Shown: piece by piece, positions 5,612 through 39,946 of the stretch
How positions within the stretch are numbered: the first letter of the stretch is position 1
Layout of the letters: each line of letters begins with the position of its first letter
Virus record (IMG/VR): IMGVR_UViG_3300020045_005957
Span: 1-46,247 of that record
Length of the DNA: 46,247 nucleotides
Origin: a virus
Taxonomy: Duplodnaviria > Caudoviricetes
Strand: one strand, 5' to 3'
Position numbers and translations under genes: made by a program
Notes under the pieces: model-generated
Databases searched by the model: none
The model's input: the letters and a program-made list of their open reading frames with translations, nothing else
What the model was told of the DNA's origin: nothing

Positions 5612-6859
5612 CTACGTTACCGTAAACCCTGCAGCAAATAGGGAAGAAGACCCTGAAGCCGACGGGGTAAATGTTAAAGATTGTGCTGAATTAAGAACCA
5701 TAGGGCTTTGTAATGATACCGTAAAACCCCCCTTAGTTGCTAGATAGACAGACATCTTAGTTGTAGCTGCTGAGAATATATCTACCCTTGCCGGGACATC
5801 AACAGATAAGATCATGTCTGTGATATAAAGCGTATGTGCTCCAGAGGTCTTAACGATTGTAGAAGCCCCTGAGGTGGTGTTTACTGCAAAAGCGTCCCAT
5901 CTTGAAGAATGTGCTGTGCTTACAAAAGCTCCTACAACAGCGGTGGTAGCTAGAAGTCCTGCACTAACTGTGCCGGTTGTAATTGAGGCAATGGTCACGT
6001 TTGCAGCTGTGACAGCAGGTGTGCCTACAATTGAAACCGTGCCTGTTGCAATTGATGCAATTGTAACACCTGATGCAGTAAAGGCAGGAGTTCCCACGAT
6101 GCTAACCGTGCCTGTTGTGATGGATGCGATTGTGACGTTTGCAGCTGTGACAATCTGTGCTGAAGGAAATACTGTGTAAACAGCTCCAGTGGTTGTTAAG
6201 GCAATAGCTCGTCCTGTGGTTGCACCCGTTTGCATCCCAAGTACAAGAGTTCCTGTACCTGTAGCTGCCATAGAAGTATCACCTATGCTGTACTGTACGC
6301 CTCCACCACCGCCAGATACCGCAACTGTGCCTACTACTGTGACGGTGCCTGTAGTAATTGATGCTATAGTAATATTGGCAGCAGTAACACTTTGCACGGA
6401 AGGGAACACAACATACTGCGCACCTGTAGCAGTTACTGCTATCGCACGCCCTGTAGTAGCTCCTGTCTGCACACCTATAATTATACTTCCTGTTGCAGTT
6501 GCCCCCATGTCAGTTGCACCTGCAGAATACTGTGCACCCCCACCTCCTCCAGAGACAGCGACGGTGCCTACTACAGTGACTGTTCCAGTAGCTAAACTTG
6601 CAACTGTGACACCAGAAGCTGAAAGCACATTAACTACATTCACTGTGCCTGTAGTCATGGATATGATGGTGAATGATCCTGTTGTAGCTGTGAGAGATGT
6701 AACACCTACAGCGACGGAGCCTGTAACAAATAAGGGATTAGCAGATGGTGCAGTAGCTGTTATCCCCCCAGTTACAGAGACTATTTGAATGTAGTCCGTA
6801 CCTACAAGGGTTGCTGCAACTGATGGTCCTGTGCCACTATTTATAGGTATACCACTCAT
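5612..6859 (-). CDS. Thr-rich repetitive tail/appendage protein
   Basis: 415 aa with two 79-aa tandem units and three ~23-aa units; C-terminal beta-sandwich-like domain. Confidence 0.75.
   Translation of the reverse strand: MSGIPINSGTGPSVAATLVGTDYIQIVSVTGGITATAPSANPLFVTGSVAVGVTSLTATTGSFTIISMTTGTVNVVNVLSASGVTVASLATGTVTVVGTVAVSGGGGGAQYSAGATDMGATATGSIIIGVQTGATTGRAIAVTATGAQYVVFPSVQSVTAANITIASITTGTVTVVGTVAVSGGGGGVQYSIGDTSMAATGTGTLVLGMQTGATTGRAIALTTTGAVYTVFPSAQIVTAANVTIASITTGTVSIVGTPAFTASGVTIASIATGTVSIVGTPAVTAANVTIASITTGTVSAGLLATTAVVGAFVSTAHSSRWDAFAVNTTSGASTIVKTSGAHTLYITDMILSVDVPARVDIFSAATTKMSVYLATKGGFTVSLQSPMVLNSAQSLTFTPSASGSSSLFAAGFTVT
5957..6622 (-). repeat. Intragenic tandem repeats (2 x 237 bp, then ~3 x 69 bp)
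   Basis: aa 80-158 and 159-237 align (TGTVTVVGTVAVSGGGGGxQYS...QTGATTGRAIA); then TAANVTIASITTGTVSIVGTPAx repeats. Confidence 0.9.
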
Positions 6860-7875: not shown

Positions 7876-9138
7876 TTACTTCTGCCCATCTACCGTGATA
7901 AGGGTAAGATCGGGTGTAGGCTCATTTCCTACAAGCCTAGACTTATACACAATAGGAGGCTTGACTTTTAAACTAGCTTCTACCTCTTTCATGCGATTAA
8001 CTAAGAGAGTTTGATGTATGTCCATTTGCTCTGGAGACAATTGCACTATAGCTTTTGTCTTTTGCATCTTAGCCATGCCCATGTTCATAAAATGTGGACG
8101 GGTCTCGTCTGTGATGCCAGCATGGTTTAGTCTGACTAGCATGTGTGCGTAAGGTTTGATGCCAGCTTCCATTAAGCGATCACAGAACCAAGAGTCCGTC
8201 GGGTATTCGTTGGTGCAGTGGAACCATGGTTTCTTGATTTTATCAAATACTTTAAGGTCGATCAGGGTAAATGGAAATGGTGTTAGGTCGCACTCTTGAA
8301 TTGTAATGTCGATACCCTTACCACAAGCGGCACAAAACTTAACATCCCAATGGCTTTGGGCATGTTGGCAATGTGGGCAGGTAGCTGGAACCTCATACAA
8401 GCGATACATGGAAGTGTCTGCTGGCATGTCGATAACCTTCTTTGTAGGGTCGTAGCGACGGAAGACGCACATGGCATGTGGGAATTTAGAGGCGTGCATG
8501 ACACCAGAGATGAATTCCTTTTTAGCATTAATTAAGAGTTCTAACATCTGTGGAGTAACGTCAAATATGTCATCATCCATAAGTAGGATGTGGGTGCATT
8601 TGTTATGCTGGGCTGTCTTAACTAAGTATTCTTCAGCCATGTGTACAGGTTTACGGTAGGCAAAATGGTACATGATTTCATACTGTCGATTAGGTGTTAA
8701 GCACAAGGCAGTCCAGAACTTTAAGAAGCTCTCGTAGAACTCGTAGCTAACTGAGAGCATAGGAATGCCAATCATAATGCGAAGACGGCCAGCTGGAGGA
8801 GGTAGCACTGGTGACTTAGCGGGGTCTGGTAAGATATCTAAATGCCCCTCCGCATTTACACGAATAGCATTAGCTGGAATAGGAAGTCCTGTTACTGGAT
8901 CTGGTGGCATCTCAGTCGAAGGATATACAGGAGCTGGAATTGAAGGACACACCTCTTTGAGGCGATTTTCTAAAAATGTGATTTGGCCCTGCATATTGTG
9001 TATGTGGGCGTGAAGCTGCTGATTTAGCAGGTGTACTTGCTGCTCATATGGGATGCTGTCGAAAGGCACAATATTGCCCATAGAGTCTTGCACGATTGGT
9101 TTTGGTAATTGTCCGTTTGTTGGTTTCGCGTCTTCCAT
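7876..9138 (-). CDS. GT-A fold (family-2-like) glycosyltransferase with inserted Zn ribbon and N-terminal coiled-coil/Pro-rich extension
   Basis: IMIGIP strand, THILLMDDD (DxD), FTLI..KVF.KI.KPWF, TDSWFC..L..AGI and late His; CPHC...CAAC insertion. Confidence 0.8.
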   Translation of the reverse strand: MEDAKPTNGQLPKPIVQDSMGNIVPFDSIPYEQQVHLLNQQLHAHIHNMQGQITFLENRLKEVCPSIPAPVYPSTEMPPDPVTGLPIPANAIRVNAEGHLDILPDPAKSPVLPPPAGRLRIMIGIPMLSVSYEFYESFLKFWTALCLTPNRQYEIMYHFAYRKPVHMAEEYLVKTAQHNKCTHILLMDDDIFDVTPQMLELLINAKKEFISGVMHASKFPHAMCVFRRYDPTKKVIDMPADTSMYRLYEVPATCPHCQHAQSHWDVKFCAACGKGIDITIQECDLTPFPFTLIDLKVFDKIKKPWFHCTNEYPTDSWFCDRLMEAGIKPYAHMLVRLNHAGITDETRPHFMNMGMAKMQKTKAIVQLSPEQMDIHQTLLVNRMKEVEASLKVKPPIVYKSRLVGNEPTPDLTLITVDGQK

Positions 9139-20649: not shown

Positions 20650-21600
20650 ATGGGTAGGTACACGCTTATAGGCATGGATGGTGAGTTAAGGGCAATTAAG
20701 AGAGCAGTTACTCTGGATATACCTGTGTTAGCTATAGGTCATACTGGATGTGGTAAGACTACAGCAATACAGCATGTGGCTAATAGCATGAATAAGAGAT
20801 TAGTGCGAATTAGCCTAAATGGTGAGATGGGCATACCAGAGCTGGTGGGTAAGTGGCTTGTAAGAGATGGTGCTACAGTGTGGCAAGATGGAATAATCGT
20901 TGAAGCTATGCGTAGTGGGGATTGGATAGTGCTAGATGAGATAAATGCGGCACTTCCAGAAGTGCTATTCTGTCTTAACTCCATCATGGATGATGCAAGG
21001 GCACTAACCATAAGTGAGAAAGATGGAGAGCTAGTCCAAGCACATGAGGACTTTAGAGTATTTGCTAGTATGAACCCAAGTGGAGAGTATGGAGGGACTA
21101 AGGAGCTTAATATGGCACTTATCTCTAGGTTTGGTGTAGTGCTTGAGGTAGATTATCAGCCACCACAGAAGGAGCTAGAGATCATTAAGCAGACTGGATT
21201 AGCTGAGGATATGTGTAAGTTGGTGATTGATGTGGGTGGGATATTGCGTAAGAGCTATAAGCAGAACATTACCACACACATGGTGAGCACACGAGATCTA
21301 ATCAATCTTGCTAGGCTGCTCAAAGATGGTGCACCCATGATTGATGCGCTTGAGTGGGCCATTATCAACAAGATAAATAAGGAGGAGAGAGTGCAGGCAG
21401 TTGAGAGGATTAAGAGTGGTATAACCCTTCAGATCAATTGGAGAGCCAGTGCTGATACTGTGATGAAGAATCTAACAGAGGATTTAGCACTAAGCGTAAA
21501 GGACTTACAAACTAAGAAGAGTGAGTTAGAGCAGAAGTTGCTCCAGCTTGAGGCTAATGTGCAGAGTGTACTAGGCTATCTTAAGCCTGCAGTACAGTAA
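20650..21600 (+). CDS. MoxR-family AAA+ ATPase (CbbQ/NorQ/CobS-like)
   Basis: GHTGCGKT, IVLDEIN, FRVFASMNP, LNxALxSRF, STRDL; C-terminal coiled coil. Confidence 0.92.
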   Translation: MGRYTLIGMDGELRAIKRAVTLDIPVLAIGHTGCGKTTAIQHVANSMNKRLVRISLNGEMGIPELVGKWLVRDGATVWQDGIIVEAMRSGDWIVLDEINAALPEVLFCLNSIMDDARALTISEKDGELVQAHEDFRVFASMNPSGEYGGTKELNMALISRFGVVLEVDYQPPQKELEIIKQTGLAEDMCKLVIDVGGILRKSYKQNITTHMVSTRDLINLARLLKDGAPMIDALEWAIINKINKEERVQAVERIKSGITLQINWRASADTVMKNLTEDLALSVKDLQTKKSELEQKLLQLEANVQSVLGYLKPAVQ

Positions 21601-21607
21601 GCTAAGT

Positions 21608-21636
21608 GGGGTGTGGGAGAAATCCTGCACCCCTTT
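21608..21636 (+). terminator. GC-rich GAAA-loop hairpin (weak terminator or processing site)
   Basis: GGGGTGTGGGA-GAAA-TCCTGCACCCC-TTT; short U tract. Confidence 0.55.
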
Positions 21637-21650
21637 AAAAGGGGGATATT

Positions 21651-22616
21651 ATGGGAGTTATTAAGCAGGTATTTAAGGTGGAGGAATTGCCTTCAGCATG
21701 GGGAGATGAGCTAAAGCGTCAAGGATATGTTAATAAGCGCAATGAGGTATGCCTTACGTTTGCTAAGCCGGAGGGTGTGGATGAGGAGGAAGAGTATAAG
21801 AGTACTGTCCACATGCCAGGCAGTAAAGATGGAGATAAGGTGGACTATGATGAGCCTCCATCACAGTATGATGTGCCTCCAGGTGTAGCAAGCAGGCTTA
21901 AGAGGTCCTTTGCAGATAATAAGGCTAAGAGGCCAGAGCATTTTAGGAAGAGTGGAAGATTGAGCCATAAGCATGTGGGTAGAGTGGCCTTCAGTAATAG
22001 GGTATTTGACCGTGCGCAGAAGCAGAATGGTAAGAGCTATTATATGCATGTGGTGGTGGATACCAGTGGGAGTATGAAGACTACTGACCCTGCTAGTGTG
22101 TCTTATGTAAGTGCTATGAACTTAGTGAGAGATCTGCAGACTATAGGTGTGCAGGTACAGGTTACGGGGTTTGACACCAGAGTAGAGTGTGTACATCCAT
22201 TCAGCCCTTCTAGATTTAGCAAGGTTTATAGGGATGGTAAGATAAAAGTTTTGCGTAGTATGGCAATAAATGGTGGTGGCACAGATCTACAAGTGGCACT
22301 TATAAGGGTATTAAGGGATATTAATGCAGTTAAGGATGCTAAGGCAGAGCATATTGTGGTTGTGCTAACAGATGGATTTCCAGATCATGATGTGCATACG
22401 CTTGAGCCACTTATGAACCAGATTAAGAAGAAGGCGGCATTAGATGTAGCACTGATATTAACACCATTCTTAGGATTGCCAAAACATGAGCAAGACAAAT
22501 GGATGAAGACTATTGAACAAAAGTTTGGATATGTGCCACGCATACTTCCTGATGTAACTGGAGTGTATGAATACTTAATAAGCCGAGTTAAGGGGCACTT
22601 TGTAGCTAAGATGTAG
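21651..22616 (+). CDS. vWA domain protein (CobT-like MoxR partner)
   Basis: MIDAS DTSGSM, GGGT, VLTDG; SGRL motif. Confidence 0.9.
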   Translation: MGVIKQVFKVEELPSAWGDELKRQGYVNKRNEVCLTFAKPEGVDEEEEYKSTVHMPGSKDGDKVDYDEPPSQYDVPPGVASRLKRSFADNKAKRPEHFRKSGRLSHKHVGRVAFSNRVFDRAQKQNGKSYYMHVVVDTSGSMKTTDPASVSYVSAMNLVRDLQTIGVQVQVTGFDTRVECVHPFSPSRFSKVYRDGKIKVLRSMAINGGGTDLQVALIRVLRDINAVKDAKAEHIVVVLTDGFPDHDVHTLEPLMNQIKKKAALDVALILTPFLGLPKHEQDKWMKTIEQKFGYVPRILPDVTGVYEYLISRVKGHFVAKM

Positions 22617-25645: not shown

Positions 25646-25674
25646 GAATAATTAAGAAATCCATTGACACAGCA

Positions 25675-25695
25675 CTTGACACGCATGGTATAATG
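25675..25695 (+). promoter_or_regulatory. Promoter-like motif CTTGACA-N4-TGGTATRATG (copy 3), leaderless to radical SAM 1
   Basis: CTTGACA CGCA TGGTATAATG; ATG 25701 is 6 nt after TATAAT, no SD; extra TTGACA at 25664 (19-bp spacer). Confidence 0.75.
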
Positions 25696-25700
25696 TACAC

Positions 25701-26804
25701 ATGCCTTTAAGCCCTAAAGAGAAAGATCCATACCTCATCGACGGACATAAGATGATGTGGCACGCAGATCGTGTGGCGCAATGGGAGAAAGCCCAAACCA
25801 TTGACGAGAAATTGAAGATTTACCCAATATATGTAGAGATTTCACCAGTTGGTCATTGTAACCATAGATGCAGCTTTTGTGCTGTAGATTACATTGGTTA
25901 TGTCAATCGTCGCATTAGTACACCAATCCTTAATTTAGCATTAGATAACATGGCAGCACATGGTGTTAAGAGTGTGATGTTTGCGGGGGAAGGTGAACCT
26001 ATGCTGCATCCAGACATTGTGCAGATTACAAATCACGCAGCAATGGTTGGGCTAGATGTAGCATTTACAACTAATGGGACGGCACTGACAAGTAAGTTTA
26101 TTGATAAGGCATTGCACAGCGTTAAGTGGATTAAGGTATCTATGAATGGAGGGCCTACAAGTTATGCGAAAATACACCGTACCAAAGAAGGTGACTACGA
26201 AAGAGTATGGGCCAACCTGCTGGCAGCTGTTACACGGCGCGCGCGAGATGGTATTAAGTGCGCTATCGGGGTGCAATGCGTCGTCTTACCCGAGAATATC
26301 CAAGATTTGGATGCTATTATCACAAGAGCTAAAGAAACAGGAGTCGACTACGTCGTTCTTAAGCCATACAGCCAGCACAAAGCCAGCCTCACGAAAGTTT
26401 ACGAAGGAGTTAATTACAAAAGCCAGGAAGCTAGGTTTGAAGAACTTAGAGGCTGGTCTACGGAGAGGTTTAAGGTAATTGCGAGGACACAGGCTATGGA
26501 GGATTGGGATGCCCAGCAACACCACTACACAACATGCCATGCAACGCCATACTACTGGGCTTATATTATGGCTACAGGGGATGTCTATAGTTGTAGCGCT
26601 TACCTACTCAACGATAGCTTTAATTTGGGATCTATTACGAGCCAATCATTTACAGAGATCTGGGAAGGTGAAAAGAGACGCAAGCACATAATTGATATGG
26701 AGAGCTTGGACATTAGCAAGTGCAGGGTGAACTGTCGAATGAATCAGGTTAACAAGTACTTAGATACCATCAAGAGAGGAAATGCCCATGCCAATTTTAT
26801 CTAA
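25701..26804 (+). CDS. Radical SAM enzyme with SPASM/twitch domain (rSAM1)
   Basis: CNHRCSFC, AGEGEP, TTNG; C..PY...GDVYSC..LG.I..EIW...C..NC. Confidence 0.93.
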   Translation: MPLSPKEKDPYLIDGHKMMWHADRVAQWEKAQTIDEKLKIYPIYVEISPVGHCNHRCSFCAVDYIGYVNRRISTPILNLALDNMAAHGVKSVMFAGEGEPMLHPDIVQITNHAAMVGLDVAFTTNGTALTSKFIDKALHSVKWIKVSMNGGPTSYAKIHRTKEGDYERVWANLLAAVTRRARDGIKCAIGVQCVVLPENIQDLDAIITRAKETGVDYVVLKPYSQHKASLTKVYEGVNYKSQEARFEELRGWSTERFKVIARTQAMEDWDAQQHHYTTCHATPYYWAYIMATGDVYSCSAYLLNDSFNLGSITSQSFTEIWEGEKRRKHIIDMESLDISKCRVNCRMNQVNKYLDTIKRGNAHANFI

Positions 26805-27060
26805 GTCAGCTAAGCAATTACTTAAGCATGTGAAGAAAGCTAGTCAAGCTAATGGATTCTTATTTGCTAAGCCTAAATTGGATTTAGGAACAAAGGCTGC
26901 AAATGATTTCATGCTGGTAAATGTGTTAAAGGCAAAAGATCAAAGTAACAGGACTGGCAGGAAAGCTGTAATAGGGCTTCCTGGAAAAAGGAGAACAAAA
27001 CGTGCTAAGCAAAGAGTTCCTGAAGTGTGTACGTGCATACAGGAAGTCCAAGAGAGCTAG
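26788..27060 (+). CDS. Basic hypothetical protein
   Basis: Lys-rich ORF with GAGG RBS between rSAM1 and rSAM2. Confidence 0.45.
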   Translation: MPILSKSAKQLLKHVKKASQANGFLFAKPKLDLGTKAANDFMLVNVLKAKDQSNRTGRKAVIGLPGKRRTKRAKQRVPEVCTCIQEVQES

Positions 27061-27187
27061 ATTCAAGAAGGCACTTCACAAAGCGATGCAAGATGATAGC
27101 AGGTTTTCAACAAGCAGGGGAACTCTTCAGAAACGACGCGGGGTAAGGTCGGGGAGGAATATCGGTGTCAGCAAGCTCAATAGCTAA
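27002..27187 (+). CDS. Basic hypothetical protein
   Basis: 61 aa, GTG start with AAGGAG RBS; Arg/Lys-rich. Confidence 0.5.
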   Translation: MLSKEFLKCVRAYRKSKRARFKKALHKAMQDDSRFSTSRGTLQKRRGVRSGRNIGVSKLNS

Positions 27188-28304
27188 AGAACATATGGCG
27201 ATGATCCTGGATGGGACAAAAATAAACTTTTACATGGATCGAGTGAGGGCGTGGGAGAGGGGTGAGAGGATAGCACCAGTAACGATCGATCTGGCCTTGA
27301 CTCGCTCCTGCCAATATTCCTGCCAATACTGTTATGCGACGATGCAAGAGAATGAACGGTTTAAGATAACTAAGGAGGTAATGAGTGGGTTCTTGGATGA
27401 TGCAGCTGAAATTGGTGTTAAAGGAGTATCTTTGGTTAGCGACGGGGAGTCTACTCTTAATCCTGCCTATGAGCATACTATTGTTTACGGGGCTAGTAAA
27501 GGGCTTAGTATGGCATCAGGTACTAATGCTTATCTTCTGCGGGATGAGTCTATGCTTCGGCGCATTTTGCCTTGCCTTACATATTTGCGTGTCAACATTA
27601 CCGCCGGAGAGCCTGCACGATATAAAGAAATAATGGGGGTAAAGGATGGGTACTTTGAGCAAGTCTGCGCAAACATTAAGCTCATGGCAAAGATTAAAAA
27701 AGAGATGTCGCTTAACGTCACAATTGGATTACAAATGGTATTGCTCCCTTCCTACATCGACCAGATTATTCCTTTGTGCCGTCTCGGGAGAGAACTTGGA
27801 GCGGACTATCTCGTTATTAAGCACTGCAGTGACGACGAGTCAGGAACTTTAGGGGTAAATTATGACCAATACAAAGATGAGCTTCTGCGGGCTACCCTTA
27901 GAGAGGCGGAAGGGTATAGTAACGATAATTACGTGGTACGTGCCAAGTGGAGCAAGATACAGGATGGTAATATTAGATCGTATAAGTCCTGCTACGGGGC
28001 ACCTTTCTTACTCCAAATCAGCGGGTCAGGCCTCGTTGCTCCGTGTGGAATGCTATTCGGTGAAAAGTATAAAAGGTACCATATCGGAAATATCACCAAA
28101 ACTAGGTTTAAGGAAATCTGGAAGAGTGAGAGATATTGGGAAGTGATGGGGGTGTTAGGTAGTGACAAGTTTGATGCGCAGAAGATGTGTGGGTCCCTCT
28201 GCCTGCAGCATAGCGTTAATAAGGCATTGGACAACCACAAGAAGGGAATTGCGCCGATTGTGCCTGGGGTGGGGGAGCTTCCTGCGCACGGAAGTTTTAT
28301 TTGA
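27165..28304 (+). CDS. Radical SAM enzyme with SPASM/twitch domain (rSAM2, paralog of rSAM1)
   Basis: CQYSCQYC, SDGES, GTNA; CYGAPF...GLVAPC..IGNI..EIW..C.SLC; ends HGSFI. Confidence 0.93.
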   Translation: MSASSIAKEHMAMILDGTKINFYMDRVRAWERGERIAPVTIDLALTRSCQYSCQYCYATMQENERFKITKEVMSGFLDDAAEIGVKGVSLVSDGESTLNPAYEHTIVYGASKGLSMASGTNAYLLRDESMLRRILPCLTYLRVNITAGEPARYKEIMGVKDGYFEQVCANIKLMAKIKKEMSLNVTIGLQMVLLPSYIDQIIPLCRLGRELGADYLVIKHCSDDESGTLGVNYDQYKDELLRATLREAEGYSNDNYVVRAKWSKIQDGNIRSYKSCYGAPFLLQISGSGLVAPCGMLFGEKYKRYHIGNITKTRFKEIWKSERYWEVMGVLGSDKFDAQKMCGSLCLQHSVNKALDNHKKGIAPIVPGVGELPAHGSFI

Positions 28305-28362
28305 AATGTCTCTATTGACACAATTCGTCTATGGAGACCAGAGCAGGATTAAAGGAGTTCGT

Positions 28363-28440
28363 ATGTTATCAGCAATAGTTGGAATTGGGCTTGGTGTACT
28401 TATCATAGGATGGTTACTAGAATGGAAGATAGACCCATAG
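28363..28440 (+). CDS. 25-aa single-TM microprotein
   Basis: MLSAIVGIGLGVLIIGWLLEWKIDP, AAGGAG RBS. Confidence 0.5.
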   Translation: MLSAIVGIGLGVLIIGWLLEWKIDP

Positions 28441-29360
28441 AACTTCCTAAAGGAACTAATTACATAGCAGCATTTCTATCATTTGCTTGCCAGCTAAGAT
28501 GTCCGTATTGCATTAACCACCATGGGGGTGACCTTGTTAAGAACCGGCGCATGACTGGTGTGCAATGGATAGATGGCTTGAGTAGAATTTCTGCGACGGA
28601 AGATCTGCCTATAACCCTGCAAGGTGGGGAGCCTACAGTGCATAAGGACTTCTACCAGATAGCGAGGCATAAGCCATTCTGGGGTAAGATGGATTTGTTG
28701 ACCAATGGGATGATGGATCTCGATGAATGGATAGCTAAGGTAGATGTGGAAGCGTTCAGAAGGAAGGCGCCTTATGCAAGTATTAGGGTAAGCTATCATA
28801 TAGGTCAAAACGATAAAGAGGTAATTGAAAGGGTACGGGTATTATTGGGTGCAGGGTATCAGGTAGGCATATGGGCAGTAGACCATCCAGACCACACTAA
28901 GCAAATTAAGGAAGCACAACTGTATGCGTGGAGTAAGGGAATAGATTTTAGGCTTAAGGAGTTCTTAGGTCCACATGGAGGGCATGAATATGGAACATTT
29001 AGGTATCCCAATGCGGTTAATGCTCACAAGCTACGATATTGCGAGTGCAGAACAAGCGAAGTGCTTATTGCCCCAGATGGGCAGATCTACAGGTGTCACA
29101 GCGACCTTTACGCAAGTAGGCTTCCTATTGGGAATATCGCTGCTGCTTCTAACCCTTTGCTTGGTAAGTGGGTGCCCTGCGCAGTCTACGGGAGATGTAA
29201 TTCCTGCGATATAAAGGTAAAAAACGACAGACATCAGGTACATGGTCACAGCTCAGTTACAATTCGCAATATTAGCCCAGAATACGCCCATAATAATGAC
29301 TTCCAAGAGCAGGTGACGAACACCTACGGTAAGGCAGACGCCCCGGCCAAGAGCGTCTGA
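28410..29360 (+). CDS. Radical SAM enzyme with twitch/SPASM domain (rSAM3)
   Basis: CQLRCPYC, QGGEP, LTNG, VSYH; C..RT..LIAPDG.IYRCH...C....C..CD. Confidence 0.92.
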   Translation: MVTRMEDRPIELPKGTNYIAAFLSFACQLRCPYCINHHGGDLVKNRRMTGVQWIDGLSRISATEDLPITLQGGEPTVHKDFYQIARHKPFWGKMDLLTNGMMDLDEWIAKVDVEAFRRKAPYASIRVSYHIGQNDKEVIERVRVLLGAGYQVGIWAVDHPDHTKQIKEAQLYAWSKGIDFRLKEFLGPHGGHEYGTFRYPNAVNAHKLRYCECRTSEVLIAPDGQIYRCHSDLYASRLPIGNIAAASNPLLGKWVPCAVYGRCNSCDIKVKNDRHQVHGHSSVTIRNISPEYAHNNDFQEQVTNTYGKADAPAKSV

Positions 29361-29378
29361 ACTGGCTAAAATGGTGTG

Positions 29379-29439
29379 ATTATCAATTCTCAACAGTTCC
29401 TTAATAGAGAGTTATAAGGGGAATTTGAGAATTGAGAAT
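29379..29439. promoter_or_regulatory. Inverted pair of tandem TGA(G/T)AAT heptads upstream of the helicase gene
   Basis: ATTATCAATTCTCA (29379-29392) ... TGAGAATTGAGAAT (29426-29439). Confidence 0.65.
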
Positions 29440-29441
29440 GG

Positions 29442-30488
29442 ATGGACATGAACCTAGAAGAGATTTATGCAGATGGAGAGTATGGAGTATTTTCAAGAGC
29501 TAAGTTGTGGGAACGTGCTCCTGCTAAGACGTACATCATAGAGCATTTGTTGTATGATAGGGATGTTATGTGTATAAGCAGTAAAGCTGGGGTGGGTAAA
29601 AGCGTCCTTACCCTGCAGATGATGTGTTGTTTGACAAGTGGGACTAACTTCTTAGATACGTATAAGGTGTATAGGCCATGTAATGTATTGTATATACAAA
29701 CTGAAGGGGATAGGGCAGAGACCTTAGAGCGGTTGACCGCGATGCGAAAGATGGTGCCTCTTGATGACTCCAGGTGGGCGCATATAAACCTGCCTGGAAT
29801 AGCAATCAATGATCCTAAGGAGTTCCAGCAATTAGTAGCTGCGGTGCGGAACTTGGGAATGCCGATCGATGTGATAATCATAGACCCCCTTTATACGACT
29901 GTTAAGGGTGATATGAGCAAGAATGAGGTATCAACAGACTGGATACGTAATATAAGGTGGCTTAAGGCGTTTTGTGATTGTGCGGTTATTGTGAATAATC
30001 ATGAGGGAAAGGATGTTTATAATGAGGGGGTAGCAATAGATAGGGGAGCGGTTAGTATATTTGGGAGTACATTTTGGGCAGCATTCTTCAATCAGAATTA
30101 CAGGCTTAAGGTATATGATGGACATCACTTGCTAGAGATAGGAAAGAATAGGTCTGGTAAGGCAGTTGACAAGATTGCCATGCGCATGGTGACAGATGGC
30201 ACGCTGGCTTACATCCCCCACGACGAGACAGCGACGGTGAAGCAAATTAAGGTGGAAACTATATTAAGGGAAGGGCGCCCGGTGGGTGCGAAGGAGTTAG
30301 TTAAGCTGTCGGGTTTAAGCCAAGCAACGGTGTATCGTGTAATTAGGAAGTTGGAAGATGAGGGAAAAATAGAAAGGGTGTTTCTCGACGGGGGAATAGG
30401 ATATCAATGGGTATGTCAGGGCGCTGATATTTCTCTTGACAAAGCTGTAGAAGATGATAGAATACTTGAACCTGAACAGGAGACGTGA
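29442..30488 (+). CDS. RecA-fold AAA_25/RepA-type helicase with C-terminal winged HTH
   Basis: SKAGVGKS Walker A, VLYIQTE, IIIDPL Walker B, NHEGK, GS; C-terminal LSQATVYR HTH; no primase domain. Confidence 0.85.
   Translation: MDMNLEEIYADGEYGVFSRAKLWERAPAKTYIIEHLLYDRDVMCISSKAGVGKSVLTLQMMCCLTSGTNFLDTYKVYRPCNVLYIQTEGDRAETLERLTAMRKMVPLDDSRWAHINLPGIAINDPKEFQQLVAAVRNLGMPIDVIIIDPLYTTVKGDMSKNEVSTDWIRNIRWLKAFCDCAVIVNNHEGKDVYNEGVAIDRGAVSIFGSTFWAAFFNQNYRLKVYDGHHLLEIGKNRSGKAVDKIAMRMVTDGTLAYIPHDETATVKQIKVETILREGRPVGAKELVKLSGLSQATVYRVIRKLEDEGKIERVFLDGGIGYQWVCQGADISLDKAVEDDRILEPEQET
30436..30463 (+). promoter_or_regulatory. sigma70-type promoter for the ThDP-enzyme operon
   Basis: TTGACA-16 nt-TAGAAT with TGn extension, inside the helicase 3' end. 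Confidence 0.55.
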
Positions 30489-30901
30489 TGCCCAAAAAAC
30501 GCCCAGCAGAACCACAGGTTTACAATGTAGGAGATTTGATAGATAGGCTTAGCATCTTAAGTCGCAAGATTTATTTTGGTGAAGAGATTGCTATAAGTGA
30601 GCACCGCTATCTGGAGAAGTTGATTGAGGAGGCAGGGTTGCCGGGGAAGCTTATAACTAACGTGATAAGGCTTGCTCAACAAAACATCGAGATATGGAAC
30701 CTAGAGCATGAGATGCGTAAAGTAGCAGAAGGTCCTGGGGCTATGTCATACGAAGAGGTGGGGCGTAGGGCTGTTAAGATTAGAGACCACAACAGAAAAA
30801 GGATTGAGTACAAGAATATGATAAATGATCTTGTTGGCAATAACTTTCGAGAAACTAAAATCAACCATTTATCGGGTGGGATTGCATGTCGAAATCATTG
30901 A
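30485..30901 (+). CDS. DUF6165/DUF4254-like all-alpha protein
   Basis: VGDLIDRLSIL..K...NIEIWNLE..R...N..R...KN.IN...E.K pattern. Confidence 0.65.
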   Translation: MMPKKRPAEPQVYNVGDLIDRLSILSRKIYFGEEIAISEHRYLEKLIEEAGLPGKLITNVIRLAQQNIEIWNLEHEMRKVAEGPGAMSYEEVGRRAVKIRDHNRKRIEYKNMINDLVGNNFRETKINHLSGGIACRNH

Positions 30902-31575
30902 CCAAAGAAGACTTGATAGCATTTGTCGACGAGGAAGTGAAGCTTTGGGAAGCTGGTAAACTTAAGATCCCCTGCCACTTCTCCGGCGGTAATGAAGATC
31001 AGTTAATCGAGATCTTTAAGGAGATAAGACCATATGACTACGTTTTCAGCGGGCATCGCAATTCTTATCATGCTTTGCTTCACGGTGTGGGCGCAGATGT
31101 ACTTATGGATGAAATATGTGGTATTTCGACTGCTCTATGCAAAGGACGTGCGCGTTCAATGGGATTTATTGACCATCGTCACAAGTTTTATGCTTCAGCT
31201 ATTGTTGGTGGTTGTGTCAATATTGCTGTGGGGGTGGCTGTAGCATTGAAGCGCTCTAATGCGGATGAGCTTCGCATTGATGAGATGGCAACACCACCAA
31301 GGCATGTTTGGTGCTTTGTAGGTGATGGAGCGGTTGATGGAGGACACTTTTGGGAGGCATTGCAGTATGCTGAAGGGCAAGAGCTTCCTATCACATTTGT
31401 GATAGAAGACAATGATCGTGCAACCTGCACTGATGTTGATAGCAGAGAAGGCAAGAAACATAGGATGCGCACTGGGTTATTAACACAGAGTGCTTGGGGA
31501 AGTAAGTACATTAAGCATTACTTTTATGAACCAACTTTCCCGCATGTTGGTACTGGGAAATATATCCAATTCTAA
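30886..31575 (+). CDS. ThDP-dependent enzyme, E1-alpha-like subunit (C-terminally short)
   Basis: HFSGGNE, GHR.SYH, GR..SM, AIVGG, GDG-x26-DN ThDP/Mg motif. Confidence 0.9.
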   Translation: MSKSLTKEDLIAFVDEEVKLWEAGKLKIPCHFSGGNEDQLIEIFKEIRPYDYVFSGHRNSYHALLHGVGADVLMDEICGISTALCKGRARSMGFIDHRHKFYASAIVGGCVNIAVGVAVALKRSNADELRIDEMATPPRHVWCFVGDGAVDGGHFWEALQYAEGQELPITFVIEDNDRATCTDVDSREGKKHRMRTGLLTQSAWGSKYIKHYFYEPTFPHVGTGKYIQF

Positions 31576-31584
31576 GGAGGGTCT

Positions 31585-32016
31585 ATGCTAGTATATATAC
31601 TATTTGGAGTGGTTGTTGTCTCGTCATACATGCTTGGTGGGCAGTTTGGGTCTGCTTGGCGTAAGTACGGTTGCCTAGCTGCAGTGATAGGGCTTGTGCT
31701 CTACGCATGGAAGCTAAAGTATCTACCCCTGCTTCTCATCTGTGGTACGGTGTTCATGGGTTATGGTGAGAAGAGTTGGATGGCTAAAAGGTTAGGGTTT
31801 GGAGATAATGCGCAGAGGTTAGCTATGGCTGCTATGTATGGATTGCCACTTATACTATCGAACTTTCTACCAGGGTTACTCGGGTACATGGTGTTAACGC
31901 TTGTGTGGATGGTGCATGCAGGAAGCTTTAAGATAGGTAAGAAGGACTTTTTGTTGGAAGATTTGTACCGAGGTGGTGCATTAGCACTTGGTGTATTAGG
32001 AGTTGTGATTGCATGA
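31585..32016 (+). CDS. Multi-pass membrane protein
   Basis: 143 aa with several hydrophobic helices; GGAGG RBS; sits between the two ThDP subunits. Confidence 0.8.
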   Translation: MLVYILFGVVVVSSYMLGGQFGSAWRKYGCLAAVIGLVLYAWKLKYLPLLLICGTVFMGYGEKSWMAKRLGFGDNAQRLAMAAMYGLPLILSNFLPGLLGYMVLTLVWMVHAGSFKIGKKDFLLEDLYRGGALALGVLGVVIA

Positions 32017-32558
32017 CATACAGCCAAGCAATAAAGGAGCAATGTGAAGCTTATGCAAAGAACCCAGCTGCAAGGTTTATCGGCTATAATACGATTTTTG
32101 GCTCTCGTATGTACGGCACCCTTGATGGTGTGGATGTGCAGCAGTGTGTGGAGACTCCTGTGGCTGAAAACCTCATGGTTGGATTGGCAATGGGTATGGC
32201 TCTTGAAGGGTATCGCCCTGTTGTTTGCTTCGAGCGTCATGATTTTATACTGCTTGCTATGGACGCCATTGTTAATCAGATGGACAAGATGCCGTGGATG
32301 AGTGGAGGACAGTTTAGGTGGCCAATAGTCATCAGGGCAATTGTGGGAGGTAAGAAGCCAATAGACCCAGGCCCGATGCATAGCCAAGACTATACGCATG
32401 AGTTGTGCACTATGCTAAAGCACACTGAGGTGTATAGGCCGATCAGCCACACCGAGCTGGTGCAGGCGTGGACTAGGGTAGGAGAGACCAAATCAGGAGC
32501 AGTAGTAATCATCGAGAAGAAGGATTGGTATAATAAGGAGTTGCCCGACAAGATTTAG
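32013..32558 (+). CDS. ThDP-dependent enzyme, E1-beta/transketolase pyrimidine-binding domain only
   Basis: ETPVAEN..G.A.GMAL.G.RPV...DF...A.D.I.N, GPMHSQ; lacks the C-terminal domain. Confidence 0.9.
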   Translation: MTYSQAIKEQCEAYAKNPAARFIGYNTIFGSRMYGTLDGVDVQQCVETPVAENLMVGLAMGMALEGYRPVVCFERHDFILLAMDAIVNQMDKMPWMSGGQFRWPIVIRAIVGGKKPIDPGPMHSQDYTHELCTMLKHTEVYRPISHTELVQAWTRVGETKSGAVVIIEKKDWYNKELPDKI

Positions 32559-35862: not shown

Positions 35863-36318
35863 ATGACGCCCGATGAGATAGTTAGATTGTTACATCCGCT
35901 GGCTACAGCAGTGCCTGATGATGCAGTATTTGGAGCAATTGCTAGATCGTTGCTTATAAGTGTAAAACCAGCTGCTGGTCTTTCACCAAGTGCTATATCT
36001 ACAACAGTTGCAGTTCCACCACCTGTTGTGGTAGGTGAGGTGGAAATTCCTAAAGGGCAGATATGTGAATGCACGGAGTGTAAAAAGAAAGTGTACGAGC
36101 TTGTAGATGATGTGCGAGCCAACATGAAGATTAGTGCATTTATTGCCTGCTTTAAGCCTATTAATGGTGCAGCGTCTATGACTACCTCCACAGATATATG
36201 GGGAGACCCGTATGGAAATGCTGCAGTAGATTGCCCATTTTGCAAGGGAGCTAAGACTGTTTGGATTAAGGGCAAAGGGGATATACCATTCAATGAGTAC
36301 CCGGAAGGAAGTAAATGA
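35863..36318 (+). CDS. Zn-ribbon hypothetical protein
   Basis: CTEC...CPFC. Confidence 0.65.
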   Translation: MTPDEIVRLLHPLATAVPDDAVFGAIARSLLISVKPAAGLSPSAISTTVAVPPPVVVGEVEIPKGQICECTECKKKVYELVDDVRANMKISAFIACFKPINGAASMTTSTDIWGDPYGNAAVDCPFCKGAKTVWIKGKGDIPFNEYPEGSK

Positions 36319-38603
36319 TACGCCCAAGTGGACCAATGGACGCAAAGATAATGCTTGTGGGAGAGGCAGCAGGAGAAACTGAAGAACGTGAGGGTGTGCC
36401 CTTTGTAGGTAGCGCAGGGCGCATCCTCGACGGGCTACTAAGGGATGCAGGCATCGTGCGCGAGACATGCTATATTACCAATGTCATGCTAGAGAGACCG
36501 GAGGGAAATAACTTTGGACATTTCTATGAGGACAAGGGACGTTCTAAGCCAACGAATGCTCTACAGGAAGGGATACGGAGATTACATGACGAGATCAAGC
36601 AGGTCAACCCATGCGTTGTGGTAGCATTGGGTGAGGAAGCTCTGCGAGCACTCACAGATAAAAGAGGAATTGGTAACTGGAGAGGATCAGTCATTGCAGG
36701 ATTGACGGGTCACAAGGTAATACCCACATACCACCCAGCAGCCATCCTGCGTGAGTGGGACTTCAGGCCTGCAGCACTGATGGACATGCAGCGCGTGCGT
36801 GGAGAGTGTACTACACATGCTATACGATCTACTGAGCGAAGGCTGGAGATCCTCCGCGACTTCGACCAAGTAATCGCAACCCTTGACATCATGAAGGAGA
36901 ATAAATATGTCGCCTTTGACATCGAAACTGAGTCTGGACAAATTACAGCTATCTCGTTCGCGCCTTCCAGTCGACCACACTGGGCAATATGTATTCCATT
37001 TTGGTTTGGGGCATCCGGGAGCCTGTGGCCGAAAGAGCAAGAGGTTGCCATCTGGGACAAAATCAGGGAAGTTCTCACAGACGATGGGTGTGGAAAGATT
37101 GCCCATAACGGCATGTACGACATTGAGTTCATCGACCGAACCATGGGATTCCACGTACGGCCTTTAGCATTTGACACGATGCTCGGGATGCATTGCCTGT
37201 ACCTTGAGCTCCCTAAGAGCTTAGCATTTGCAGTTAGCATATATACTGACCACCCATATTACAAGCAGGGCTTACATGCAACTAGCATGGATGCCTTCTT
37301 CTTGTATAATGCTACAGATGCGTGCTTAACTATGGAGATAGCAGAGAAGTTAATGCGGGAGATTAAGGAGGATGGGTTATGGCAGTTTTACTTGGATTAC
37401 TTGCATTCCTTGGTGGAGCCTTTATTGGCTATGCAGCAGCGGGGTGTGAAATTCGATTACTTGAAGAGGAACTCCGTCAAAAAGCGTTATCAAGAGGAGA
37501 TAGCAGTGCTGCAGCGAAACCTCGATGCGGCTGCGAGTGCAGCGATTAACGTAAACAGTCCTAAGCAGATGAAGGAGTGGTTATATGGAAGTAAAGAGAA
37601 AGGTGGGCTTGGGCTTAAAGAGAGGACTAAGAAGCGAAAGAGTACAGGGGAAACAACGGTTGCAGCAGACGACGAAGCCTTGCAAGATATCTACCAAGAA
37701 ACGGAAAACAATGCAATCCGGCTTGTCCTGCAAATACGGGAAAAGCAGAAAATCCTTAGCACCTACCTCGAAGTTAAGCTCGACGAAGATAAGCGAATCC
37801 GATGCAGCTATAATATTACAGGAACTGAGACAGGCAGACTCTCAAGCGGGAAGACTGCGCGTGGAACTGGAACGAATCTTCAGAATGTTCCATCTGGGAT
37901 CGTACGGTCTTTATTCGTCCCCGACGATGGAAAGGTGTTTATCAACGCAGACCTTAGTCAAGCTGAGGCAAGAGTTGTGGCATACCTCAGCAATGAGCAA
38001 CGCCTCATTAGAGTGTTTGAGGAGGGTGGAGATATACATAGAAAGAATGCTGCTAACATCTATGGAATACCAGAAGAGCAAGTTACAGATAACCAAAGAC
38101 AGCTTGCCAAGAGAGTCGTGCACGCCAGTAACTATGGCATGGGACCTATCACGTTCGCCAGGACAGCAGGGATTTCAGCAGCAGAAGCCAAGCGGTTACT
38201 CAACCAGTACTTCGCAACATACCCCGGTATCGCTAACTGGCACCTCGACATTAGGAACCAGCTCAATAAACGGCGTTACTTGGTTACACCCTTCGGGAGG
38301 AAGCGTTACTTTTACAACAGGTGGGGTGAAGACATCGTCAAAGAAGGGCTTGCGTACATCCCGCAAAGCACAGTTGCGGACATCGTCACGACGGGGCTTG
38401 CGTGTGCGCACAAGAAAGGGATTGAAGTGCTCCTCCAAGTCCACGATGCGCTGCTTGTCCAAGCGCCTGTTGAGCAAGGGGAAGAGATAGCAAGAAGCTT
38501 GAAGGAATGTTTGAGCATCCCACTTGAGATCAGTGGAAGGGTATTTACTATTCCAGTTGATCTCAAGATGGGAAGCTCGTGGGATGATTTAAATAAGCTC
38601 TAG
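36315..38603 (+). CDS. polA: Family A DNA polymerase with N-terminal family-4 uracil-DNA-glycosylase-like domain and 3'-5' exonuclease
   Basis: GEAAG..E...PFVG.AG, YITNV, YHPAA (UDG); FDIET, HNG.YD, YNATD (exo); TGRLSS, NLQN, DLSQAE, KRVVHASNYG, QVHD (pol). Confidence 0.95.
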   Translation: MIRPSGPMDAKIMLVGEAAGETEEREGVPFVGSAGRILDGLLRDAGIVRETCYITNVMLERPEGNNFGHFYEDKGRSKPTNALQEGIRRLHDEIKQVNPCVVVALGEEALRALTDKRGIGNWRGSVIAGLTGHKVIPTYHPAAILREWDFRPAALMDMQRVRGECTTHAIRSTERRLEILRDFDQVIATLDIMKENKYVAFDIETESGQITAISFAPSSRPHWAICIPFWFGASGSLWPKEQEVAIWDKIREVLTDDGCGKIAHNGMYDIEFIDRTMGFHVRPLAFDTMLGMHCLYLELPKSLAFAVSIYTDHPYYKQGLHATSMDAFFLYNATDACLTMEIAEKLMREIKEDGLWQFYLDYLHSLVEPLLAMQQRGVKFDYLKRNSVKKRYQEEIAVLQRNLDAAASAAINVNSPKQMKEWLYGSKEKGGLGLKERTKKRKSTGETTVAADDEALQDIYQETENNAIRLVLQIREKQKILSTYLEVKLDEDKRIRCSYNITGTETGRLSSGKTARGTGTNLQNVPSGIVRSLFVPDDGKVFINADLSQAEARVVAYLSNEQRLIRVFEEGGDIHRKNAANIYGIPEEQVTDNQRQLAKRVVHASNYGMGPITFARTAGISAAEAKRLLNQYFATYPGIANWHLDIRNQLNKRRYLVTPFGRKRYFYNRWGEDIVKEGLAYIPQSTVADIVTTGLACAHKKGIEVLLQVHDALLVQAPVEQGEEIARSLKECLSIPLEISGRVFTIPVDLKMGSSWDDLNKL

Positions 38604-38911: not shown

Positions 38912-39946
38912 TTAGTCAAGCCAATCCGGCTGACGTAATGCATTGAGGATGCTTTGGGCATTGCGCCCTATGTCATTGCGGTATTGTAGGTCGGGGGACT
39001 TCAAGTTACCGACGGTGCGGTACATGCGACGAACGCACTCATTCTCGTCATTGCCACGTGCAGTGACATATCCTACAAGCCCAGACCCATCGACGCTGTA
39101 TGCTCCATCGGTGCGAGAGACGTCAGCAAGCCATAAGTGCTTCAAGTTACCTGGGACTATTCCAGTGATTGGCGCAGGCTCACGATTACCACGTTCGTAT
39201 GGGTATGGAGGAGTGCTTATTTGCACACCGCATGCCCACTTGTCGGTGGCTTGGATGGGCTTTGAGGTTTCATCGAATAAGCGAAGGATAACATCTGATA
39301 CAGATAGGTTAGTATTCTCGTACAGAAGCAGAGACAATGGATGTGCAAAGGATGCATGAATCTCTTTTACGCAGAAATTATCTCCATCAACCATGGTATG
39401 CAGATGAATGCCTCCACGGTGATTGACCTTCTTAAGCACGCGTTCTAGTGGTTCAACGAATGTATGGTATGTCTTAGGGGTTAGGCCTTTGAAGTTTCCT
39501 ATCATGCCTGTACACATCAAGTCAGGGCCTGCACCACCTGGCATGAAGCGGCGATAGACGATTGAGGCATAGGAGGCTATGAAGGATGCTCCGTTAAACC
39601 AAGCACTTATGTACATATGGGTGCCTTGAGCTAGTGGGGTAGTTGACCAACCTAGAGAGGTGATGATTTGCTTGCGGTAATTCTCATCACTCTCTAGCAT
39701 CGACGACCAGCGTGTAGGGCCTAGCACCTTAAAGCCGTGGCTGCGTACGTTCTCGGCTTCGGTGGTGTGAGCTAAGTTATCGTAGAGAGCTATATCAGGA
39801 ACCCAAGACTCGTCTACAGCAGGAAACCGTATAAGACCGCGTCCGGCGGTGGAGAGGGTTGCAAAGCGCACGTCGTGGCCATCATTCTCAATTCTCATAG
39901 CAAGGCCTAGAGTTAGTCCAGTTTGTGAGACAAGTAGTACTCGCAT
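38912..39946 (-). CDS. Degenerate PurD-like ATP-grasp protein
   Basis: GHDV, V.G...S.MLE, WFNG..F, RFMPGG.GP, STPPYP, G.VTARG, YRND.G; lid region and catalytic E-x-N-x-R motif absent. Confidence 0.7.
   Translation of the reverse strand: MRVLLVSQTGLTLGLAMRIENDGHDVRFATLSTAGRGLIRFPAVDESWVPDIALYDNLAHTTEAENVRSHGFKVLGPTRWSSMLESDENYRKQIITSLGWSTTPLAQGTHMYISAWFNGASFIASYASIVYRRFMPGGAGPDLMCTGMIGNFKGLTPKTYHTFVEPLERVLKKVNHRGGIHLHTMVDGDNFCVKEIHASFAHPLSLLLYENTNLSVSDVILRLFDETSKPIQATDKWACGVQISTPPYPYERGNREPAPITGIVPGNLKHLWLADVSRTDGAYSVDGSGLVGYVTARGNDENECVRRMYRTVGNLKSPDLQYRNDIGRNAQSILNALRQPDWLD

Follow-up and report, generated by a model that had tools for sequence, protein, structure and literature searches.

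Why a tailed phage with a genome of some 46 kb should carry three radical S-adenosylmethionine (SAM) enzymes and a two-part thiamine diphosphate (ThDP) enzyme is the question raised by viral record IMGVR_UViG_3300020045_005957. The window, meaning the whole stretch of 46,247 bp that was analysed, is a complete phage record with a 121-bp terminal repeat and no tRNA genes. Virion genes (terminase, SU10-like portal, capsid and adaptor) lie on the minus strand, and replication genes (helicase, PD-(D/E)xK nuclease, Sak4 and a PolA fused to a uracil-DNA glycosylase (UDG) domain) on the plus strand. Within the replication arm are the genes for the radical SAM enzymes, here called rSAM1, rSAM2 and rSAM3, for a DUF4254/DUF6165-like protein, and for the E1-alpha-like and E1-beta-like halves of the ThDP enzyme (Table 1). 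An earlier note, made from the sequence alone, had placed these open reading frames (ORFs) correctly, as Pfam matches confirm, and had read them as a sugar pathway whose product goes onto virion proteins, DNA or the host surface. The gene set is a conserved module, real and biochemically coherent. That it branches a sugar is likely, and can be held with some assurance. The full route, in which a nucleoside diphosphate (NDP)-sugar of the host is made into a C-branched NDP-sugar and a glycosyltransferase (GT) of the head operon moves the sugar to a virion protein, is given somewhat better than an even chance.

The earlier note had named independent occurrence of these genes in relatives as one result that would speak against a shared pathway. 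In relatives the genes stay linked, with their order shuffled. With rSAM3 as the marker, an rSAM1/2-family gene is present in 32 of 40 viral loci (five weak matches, L212-L216, excluded). A ThDP gene is present in 36 of 43 viral rSAM3 loci, a set that includes some near-copies and in which the seven loci without the gene are mostly at contig ends. The classes found are E1-type (22), TK-N (6), acetolactate synthase (ALS)/YerE-like (7) and a cut PYR half (1), and never two of them together. A search with the alpha half gave 74 viral loci, among which 13 hold the rSAM1/2 family, 7 rSAM3 and 6 the DUF gene; one, L012, has all six core genes in a different order. In a metagenome sample, 45 of 80 rSAM3 loci were judged (those of at least 8 kb), with the rSAM1/2 family in 36, a ThDP gene in 32 and a GT9 heptosyltransferase-like gene in 30. 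A review on ThDP enzymes that accept ketones assigns the branching of keto-sugars, in part as a proposal, to three classes: decarboxylase/YerE, alphaKADH2 and split transketolase (TK) enzymes (PMC12247030 section 2). Since three ThDP classes fill one slot, their shared job is likely to be C-C branching, and this interchange is the strongest sign of it in the sequences.

The window enzyme is of the E1 type. Its alpha half matches E1_dh (1.6e-16) and contains GDG-x27-N, which is kept in 36 relatives together with three invariant His/Arg residues. The beta half matches Transket_pyr (3.9e-12), with Glu52 and His123 invariant among relatives. It spans residues ~6-176 of the 329 of E1-beta, and its C-terminal domain is therefore absent. 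Median lengths of the viral halves are 207 and 178 aa, compared with 333 and 362 aa in cellular cassettes. As the earlier note had maintained, this is not pyruvate dehydrogenase: no E2 or E3 family was found among the 50 ORFs scanned and no lipoyl domain in the complete genome. The absence of E2/E3 makes function in a dehydrogenase complex impossible, and a pyruvate or other 2-oxoacid dehydrogenase complex is excluded on this ground and on the missing C-terminal domain of beta.

Sugar branching by alphaKADH2 enzymes (E1 alpha/beta) is described for the aldgarose of aldgamycin, for KbDH-alpha/beta of kibdelomycin, and for the avilamycin and trioxacarcin sugars (PMC12247030 section 2.2). The phage pair resembles them in having E1-type PP and PYR domains on two genes without E2/E3, a nucleotide-sugar context, the ThDP motif, the activating Glu and the beta His. 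It differs in its phage setting, in its much shorter halves, and in a beta protein of 181 aa that is PYR alone, in place of a full E1-beta. Three radical SAM enzymes accompany it, with no nicotinamide adenine dinucleotide (NAD)-dependent dehydratase, aminotransferase or reductase, and the proposed product would be a virion glycan, not an antibiotic. To judge from these features, the pair likely works like the alphaKADH2 family without being a standard member of it. In aldgarose synthesis, the branching step goes together with the formation of a 3-keto-4,6-dideoxy sugar by a route like that of DesI/DesII. The other two classes are represented by YerE-like decarboxylases, for yersiniose and erwiniose, and by split TK enzymes, for miharamycin and amipurimycin (PMC12247030 sections 2.1, 2.3). 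They replace the E1-type pair of the window beside rSAM3 in 7 and 6 of the 43 viral loci, respectively. The keto-sugar in such pathways comes from NAD- or pyridoxal phosphate (PLP)-dependent enzymes, which were not found in the window. A fused short E1 (PHROG 34187) is present in cyanophages S-SM2 and P-TIM68, 43-44% identical to the alpha half and located in a sugar-gene island in S-SM2. Unlike the window pair, it is a fusion flanked by Zn-dehydrogenase and PfkB genes, and no radical SAM gene is annotated in the 20-kb stretch. No phage pathway of this composition was found in the literature, most subscription journals being outside the coverage. Occurrence of yersiniose in giant viruses was considered, found no support in literature listings and was rejected.

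What the radical SAM enzymes would contribute is suggested by their motifs and folds. All three have CxxxCxxC, with Pfam Radical_SAM matches of E = 5e-17, 3e-12 and 2e-6 for rSAM1, rSAM2 and rSAM3, the last just below the curated cut-off, and SPASM matches of E = 3e-10, 5e-8 and 0.019. The motif in all three and the fold match of the rSAM2 model place them in the radical SAM superfamily. In alignments of relatives there are four invariant C-terminal Cys in rSAM1, four in rSAM2 and five in rSAM3, and from these numbers each probably holds one auxiliary cluster, of the twitch type. The SPASM type with two auxiliary clusters, taken to have seven or eight conserved C-terminal Cys, is excluded by the same counts.

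The predicted structure of rSAM2 (predicted local distance difference test (pLDDT) score 83) has DesII as its first Foldseek match (E 2e-14). VIA returns BlsE (Z 22.1, root-mean-square deviation (rmsd) 3.9, 301 aligned) and DesII (Z 22.1, rmsd 4.2, 344 aligned), and viperin is with BlsE among the fold neighbours. The best PDB sequence matches of rSAM1 are BlsE, 8wm2 (AbmM), SkfB and DesII. DesII and BlsE turn a nucleotide- or nucleoside-sugar into a keto-deoxy product by radical chemistry. According to the accessible part of PMC11434129, DesII converts a thymidine diphosphate (TDP)-amino-sugar to a 3-keto-4,6-dideoxy sugar, and analogues are dehydrogenated or dehydrated. Branching ThDP enzymes need a keto-deoxy sugar as their acceptor. 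Unlike the DesII system, the phage has no DegT/DesI gene, which makes deamination unlikely; identity to DesII and BlsE is 12-16%, and scores of 60.8 and 36 bits are well below the 450-bit cut-off of the DesII family TIGR04426.

At ~29% identity, rSAM1 and rSAM2 are deep paralogues. In a quick tree, which covers 81 out of the 139 distinct sequences and omits most of the cellular ones, the two recur together in phages and also at three cellular loci, and a third rSAM1/2 subfamily (29 rows, all viral in the sample) takes the place of the pair in most other phages. A search with rSAM2 gave 6,747 of 7,998 scored candidates at E<=1e-20, distant radical SAM proteins included. Single-protein scans of viral contigs with rSAM1 and with the GT gave no match, but alignment-based searches did find relatives of both. 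Among 50,697 INPHARED records, none with a named cultured host matched rSAM2 (4 matches, 21-27%), and likewise none matched rSAM3. In a 735-kb phage record (LR756501.1 322608-324246) an rSAM1/2-family gene adjoins a short E1-alpha gene. In two further loci (L005:3879-5912 and L007:3879-5912) an insertion of ~321 aa lies inside the CxxxCxxC of an rSAM1/2-family enzyme and has the hallmarks of an intein, with a Cys start, a His-Asn-Cys end and an endonuclease-like middle. This suggests that the enzyme is under strong selection.

The same searches bear on whether the genes belong together at all. They could be unlinked auxiliary genes: a pyruvate dehydrogenase or transketolase, truncated and serving the metabolism of the host, together with peptide or cofactor maturases. 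The best hidden Markov model (HMM) scores are indeed to pyruvate dehydrogenase E1 subunits and to cofactor or peptide maturases, all far under cut-off, and the peptide maturase SkfB ties by fold. For maturases of ribosomally synthesized and post-translationally modified peptides (RiPPs) in particular, family scores are far under cut-offs and the rSAM2 model is without an extra N-terminal domain; no conserved small precursor ORF was noticed adjoining the radical SAM genes, ORFs below 60-70 aa not having been collected. With linkage that survives gene shuffling, three ThDP classes that interchange, and no E2/E3 or lipoyl domain, this explanation is largely refuted, chiefly by the linkage, and is very improbable.

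The sugar itself has to be read from the relatives. Around the 74 viral short-E1-alpha loci the neighbours, each family named from one representative, are NAD-sugar epimerase/dehydratases (50), PfkB (37), DegT (36), B12-radical SAM (32) and RmlC (22). In the best 80 of 444 cellular rSAM2 loci they include HldE-like (45), SIS/GmhA-like (35), DegT (48) and ThDP (48) genes, a 360-aa orphan (69) and a nearby E1 pair (43-44). A GT9 heptosyltransferase-like gene lies between the radical SAM and alpha genes in phage loci L001 and L009. One bacterial NDP-heptose tailoring cassette, on the Azospirillum oryzae plasmid NZ_CP054615, has GmhA-like and HldE-like genes, epimerases, full E1 alpha/beta, two DegT genes, the 360-aa orphan and rSAM2. 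Like the phage it has the E1 pair near rSAM2, and rSAM2 of the window is 59-66% identical to the enzymes of such cassettes. The phage, in contrast, lacks the heptose-making enzymes, those that depend on NAD or PLP, and the orphan, and has in addition rSAM1, rSAM3, the DUF gene and a GT-A enzyme. The orphan (e.g. L141:8900-9979) has no Pfam or NCBIfam match, and all 8 of its weak PDB profile matches (E 0.2-0.96) are to IscU/SufU/NifU-N; it is possibly a dedicated Fe-S scaffold for the radical SAM enzyme. The O-antigen region of Coxiella was considered as an analogue and rejected: it has an HldE-like gene, and no radical SAM or transketolase is mentioned in the accessible part of PMC13252051, no sequence comparison having been made. 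No nucleotidyltransferase or NAD-dependent dehydratase was found in the window genome, and an NDP-sugar of the host is therefore needed. On the evidence of relatives heptose would be the likeliest substrate, at about even chances, with an NDP-hexose possible, and the ADP-heptose of lipopolysaccharide (LPS) synthesis would fit as the host donor.

The proposed route would start from such a host NDP-sugar, most likely the ADP- or GDP-heptose of LPS-core synthesis. From it rSAM1 and/or rSAM2 would abstract a ring or side-chain hydrogen, and a vicinal diol would be oxidised or dehydrated to a (deoxy)keto-sugar in a DesII-like manner, as fold and context suggest. By the chemistry of its family, the PP+PYR enzyme would then decarboxylate pyruvate and place a C2 unit on the ketone, giving a tertiary-alcohol branch and a product that would be C9 from heptose or C8 from hexose. 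It is conceivable that rSAM3 and the second paralogue tailor this product. Finally, while the particle is assembled, the late GT would attach the sugar to the capsid protein or to fibre proteins rich in Ser and Thr, a step suggested by gene position and fold. Linkage in relatives and the DesII and BlsE fold matches agree with the sugar pathway put forward in the earlier note. The most specific version, in which a widespread group of small tailed phages takes host ADP-heptose, builds a C-branched nine-carbon sugar by means of radical SAM dehydratases or dehydrogenases and the two-domain E1-type carboligase, and coats its own particle with it, is tentative and, taken whole, on the doubtful side.

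Where the sugar would go depends largely on the GT. Its predicted structure (pLDDT 91.6) has protein A197 of Sulfolobus turreted icosahedral virus (STIV) as the top match (Z 18.3, rmsd 2.5, 167 aligned; next Z 14.8), with LH3/COLGALT1, Mnn9 and mimivirus R699 among further matches, and the top folds are all GT-A. Two Asp of its DDD motif are invariant among 66 sequences, so that a GT-A fold and a DxD motif are both present. These matches came from the fold search alone; Pfam gave no GT match above cut-off, and PDB sequence searches with GT profiles no meaningful one. In 5 of 5 module-bearing records and 6 more, the GT gene comes after the capsid and 249-aa genes, and ahead of the adaptor gene wherever the locus extends that far. 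It lies inside the module in L175, L187 and L209. Of 27 phage-sized contig sizes among the rSAM2 matches, 11 reappear among the GT matches, an indirect sign of shared contigs. In ten capsid relatives that are at least 90% complete, rSAM3 and Transket_pyr are both absent (0/10 each) and the GT is found once, as a distant match. Module-bearing records without this GT family carry GT or GT-like genes of other kinds, which adjoin portal, capsid or terminase genes in several lineages. Four virion-operon proteins contain 24-30% Ser+Thr, a feature also common in unglycosylated fibres.

STIV A197 is likewise a virus-encoded GT-A enzyme with a virion protein as its proposed acceptor (PMC10551542, accessible part), and in mycobacteriophage virion glycosylation the acceptor is also a virion protein (Freeman 2023, as summarised in PMC12619734). 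A197 is thought, in the same part of PMC10551542, to use host donor sugars, whereas the phage seemingly builds a rare donor of its own; in addition, the window GT is extended at length at both its N- and C-terminal ends and contains a Cys4 insert. The module resembles the alphaKADH2, YerE and split TK pathways, and its end step resembles A197, yet it is a standard member of neither: of the ThDP enzyme only PP+PYR remain, radical enzymes would be the sole source of the keto-sugar, and the carrier is a small phage. Among the three destinations that the earlier note had left open, the evidence leans to a virion protein, the GT being in the head operon and its fold nearest to A197, and away from DNA, with no base-handle enzyme found and palindromes avoided to the same degree as in module-free relatives. 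Overall, a virion protein is the likeliest acceptor, by slightly more than an even chance.

Two other destinations have to be weighed against this. The same branched-sugar chemistry could place its product on the host surface, in LPS or another envelope glycan, for receptor masking or superinfection exclusion. The cellular relatives are in surface-glycan-type cassettes with GT9 and HldE, the fused short E1 of S-SM2 is among nucleotide-sugar and heptose genes of a kind interpreted as host-surface modifiers (PMC12801897), and a hydrophobic protein is encoded within the operon. However, the hydrophobic gene is not conserved, and the sole GT found in the genome belongs to the late head operon and does not have a GT9 fold. 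Module and GT genes also flank portal, capsid or terminase in several lineages (L015/L017/L022, L186/L189, L193-L197, L194/L200/L207), and a surface destination is considered unlikely.

It is improbable that the module makes a donor for DNA hypermodification protecting the genome from restriction. Its genes are among helicase, exonuclease, Sak4 and UDG-fused PolA genes, here and in 10-11 of 40 rSAM3 loci, and the intein in L005 and L007 would also suit this reading. Yet no base-handle enzyme (hydroxymethylase, TET/JBP or similar) was found among the 50 ORFs, many of which are without a family, several relatives carry a ParB-fused DNA methylase instead, and the top folds of the GT are protein- or glycan-directed enzymes. 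The observed/expected value for 6-mer palindromes is 0.77 in the window; it spans 0.57-0.92 across 11 loci with the module and 0.48-0.86 across 10 without it, compared with 0.93-1.0 in simulations. By this weak test, restriction-site avoidance is not relaxed relative to the module-free relatives. The enzymes could instead make a free small molecule, for instance a nucleotide sugar or nucleoside in modified form that depletes or poisons the envelope synthesis of the host or a defence; the GT would then be unrelated to the module. BlsE and viperin are fold neighbours of rSAM2, the enzymes have host-type promoters and are separate from the GT operon, and the GT link rests on few independent events. 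Such a product is given little probability, with the GT gene within the module in three records and module loci commonly holding some GT gene.

Several observations weigh against the route from host NDP-sugar to virion protein. In the capsid tree, the ten module-free relatives together make up one side of one branch (Shimodaira-Hasegawa approximate likelihood ratio test (SH-aLRT) 92), and the joint absence of GT and module may for that reason be one event. This GT family is found in only 11 of 38 module-bearing records and 4 of 8 near-complete ones. In the clade of the window, the module enzymes lie among the replication genes, next to the UDG-fused PolA and at a distance of 17 kb from the GT. 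It is relatives (GT9, HldE) that give the heptose signal and not the window genome, whose GT is GT-A and not GT9. Nor does the phage have a reductase or aminotransferase with which the branch could be finished. A197 is essential and, in the accessible part of PMC10551542, is proposed, not proven, to glycosylate the capsid protein. Among the 45 metagenome loci, two combine two ThDP classes, and 13 are without a ThDP gene. No NCBIfam family reaches cut-off for any of the radical SAM enzymes. The rSAM2 model is 12-18% identical to its fold matches, SkfB ties with DesII and BlsE (VIA Z 21.5), and SkfB is also at the top of the rSAM2 profile search. The earlier note had held that a closest homology to peptide maturases or cofactor enzymes would speak against a sugar pathway; the nearest solved structures of rSAM2 do include sugar enzymes, DesII and BlsE, although with SkfB on a par.

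Of the accessory genes, the DUF4254/DUF6165-like gene recurs in phage modules. Its match to Pfam DUF4254 (16.8 bits, E 0.0064) is under the gathering cut-off of 27, and 11 of 15 relatives match weakly (best 4.7e-6). Atlas places it with DUF4254/DUF6165 clusters at 0.88-0.89, which serves as a lead only, and clusters DUF6165 with GT9 domains. In 88 rSAM3 loci the DUF4254-like and GT9 genes never occur together (22 DUF only, 36 GT9 only, 30 neither), a pattern confounded by lineage. The two fill the same slot in L012 (DUF-alpha-beta-rSAM1-rSAM2-rSAM3) and L281 (GT9-alpha-beta-rSAM1-rSAM2-rSAM3). The helicase and membrane genes are passengers and not part of the core. The helicase gene does lie between the module genes, as had been noted, but is not a core member; the membrane gene, also counted earlier as part of the cluster, has no tblastn match in the 74 short-E1-alpha loci or in a set of 137 locus rows, one weak positional look-alike in L172 (E 0.008) and no usable Atlas family.

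The promoters proposed in the earlier note do precede module genes, with like sites before the same genes in L172, although the first begins at 25664 and not 25675. They are the only sites in the window matching the consensus in at least 11 of 12 positions (12/12 with a 19-nt spacer and extended -10, and 11/12), a number not above chance, as simulated sequences have 1.2 per genome. A generic promoter scan, which missed the site with the 19-nt spacer, was also not above chance (35 versus 38.9 +/- 5.6). The ATG of rSAM1 is only 6 nt past the -10, and the mRNA is for this reason probably leaderless. The arrangement TTGACA-N7-TATAAT-N6-ATG, with a TTGACA 7 nt before the -10, is conserved between the window (25664-25701) and L172:1048-1073.

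Table 1. Positions in the window of the module, its promoters and passengers, and the virion genes proposed for the last step.
Feature	Position	Strand	Remarks
Sigma70-type promoter (TTGACA, 19 nt, TGnTATAAT)	25664..25694	+	Same TTGACA-N7-TATAAT-N6-ATG before rSAM1 in L172
rSAM1, twitch-type radical SAM enzyme (probable type), 367 aa	25701..26804	+	Old paralogue of rSAM2
rSAM2, twitch-type radical SAM enzyme (probable type), 379 aa	27165..28304	+	Relatives in bacterial NDP-heptose-tailoring cassettes
rSAM3, third radical SAM family, 316 aa, module marker	28410..29360	+	Start may be ATG at 28422
AAA_25 helicase with C-terminal winged helix (wHTH), replication gene, non-core	29442..30488	+	In 2 of 40 viral rSAM3 loci
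Sigma70-type promoter (11/12) upstream of DUF, E1-alpha, membrane and PYR genes	30436..30463	+	Corresponding site in L172 is 12/12
DUF4254/DUF6165-like helical protein, 138 aa, recurrent phage-module accessory	30485..30901	+	
Short E1-alpha-like PP domain of ThDP enzyme, 229 aa	30886..31575	+	GDG-x27-N motif
Hydrophobic 143-aa protein without known family, passenger separating the ThDP halves	31585..32016	+	
E1-beta-like PYR domain only, 181 aa	32013..32558	+	Invariant Glu52, His123; without C-terminal domain
GT-A-fold glycosyltransferase, DDD motif, proposed last step	7876..9138	-	Between capsid (10226-11203)/249-aa gene and head-tail adaptor (6861-7601)
Ser/Thr-rich (30%) virion-operon protein	5612..6859	-	Candidate acceptor (putative role)
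Other Ser/Thr-rich virion-operon proteins	823-1980 (27%), 3327-5141 (25%), 2489-2998 (24%)		Candidate acceptors

Some further genes of the window were noted. A GARS_C/ATP-grasp-like gene (38912-39946, minus strand) ends the virion operon, is found in most module-free capsid relatives too, and is possibly a second virion-modifying enzyme. The UDG-like domain of PolA (36315-38603) is N-terminal, and this gene is common to 11 of 40 rSAM3 loci. A CobS/MoxR-like AAA ATPase and a vWA (CobT-like) protein are encoded at 20650-22616, a common phage pair. A hydrophobic ORF of 25 codons with a good ribosome-binding site (28363-28440) overlaps the start of rSAM3, and two Lys/Arg-rich ORFs (26782-27060 and 27002-27187) are of doubtful status. 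Among the relatives, L190, L193, L197 and L204-L206 are a separate phage lineage with a chaperonin gene, the module (in which the ThDP class varies) and GT genes; some have cytidylyltransferases and LicD, and most have terminase/portal downstream.

Rare-sugar synthesis for the virion coat is known in giant eukaryotic viruses (PMC10117803, accessible part). If the proposed route is correct, the scope of phage glycosylation would be wider, with a genome of 46 kb devoting some tenth of its length to oxygen-sensitive radical chemistry through which the phage makes its own donor. In its nine-carbon form, the route would mean a self-made, non-host virion glycan in a phage of this size and new radical sugar chemistry in three uncharacterised radical SAM families. 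The small set, five enzymes and one GT, is a tractable entry to these large families and to the related bacterial cassette, and the shortened ThDP enzyme would be a minimal carboligase of use for tertiary-alcohol synthesis. Many phage genes labelled 'transketolase' or 'pyruvate dehydrogenase', which could pass as metabolic auxiliary genes, would gain a definite interpretation from the route as well.

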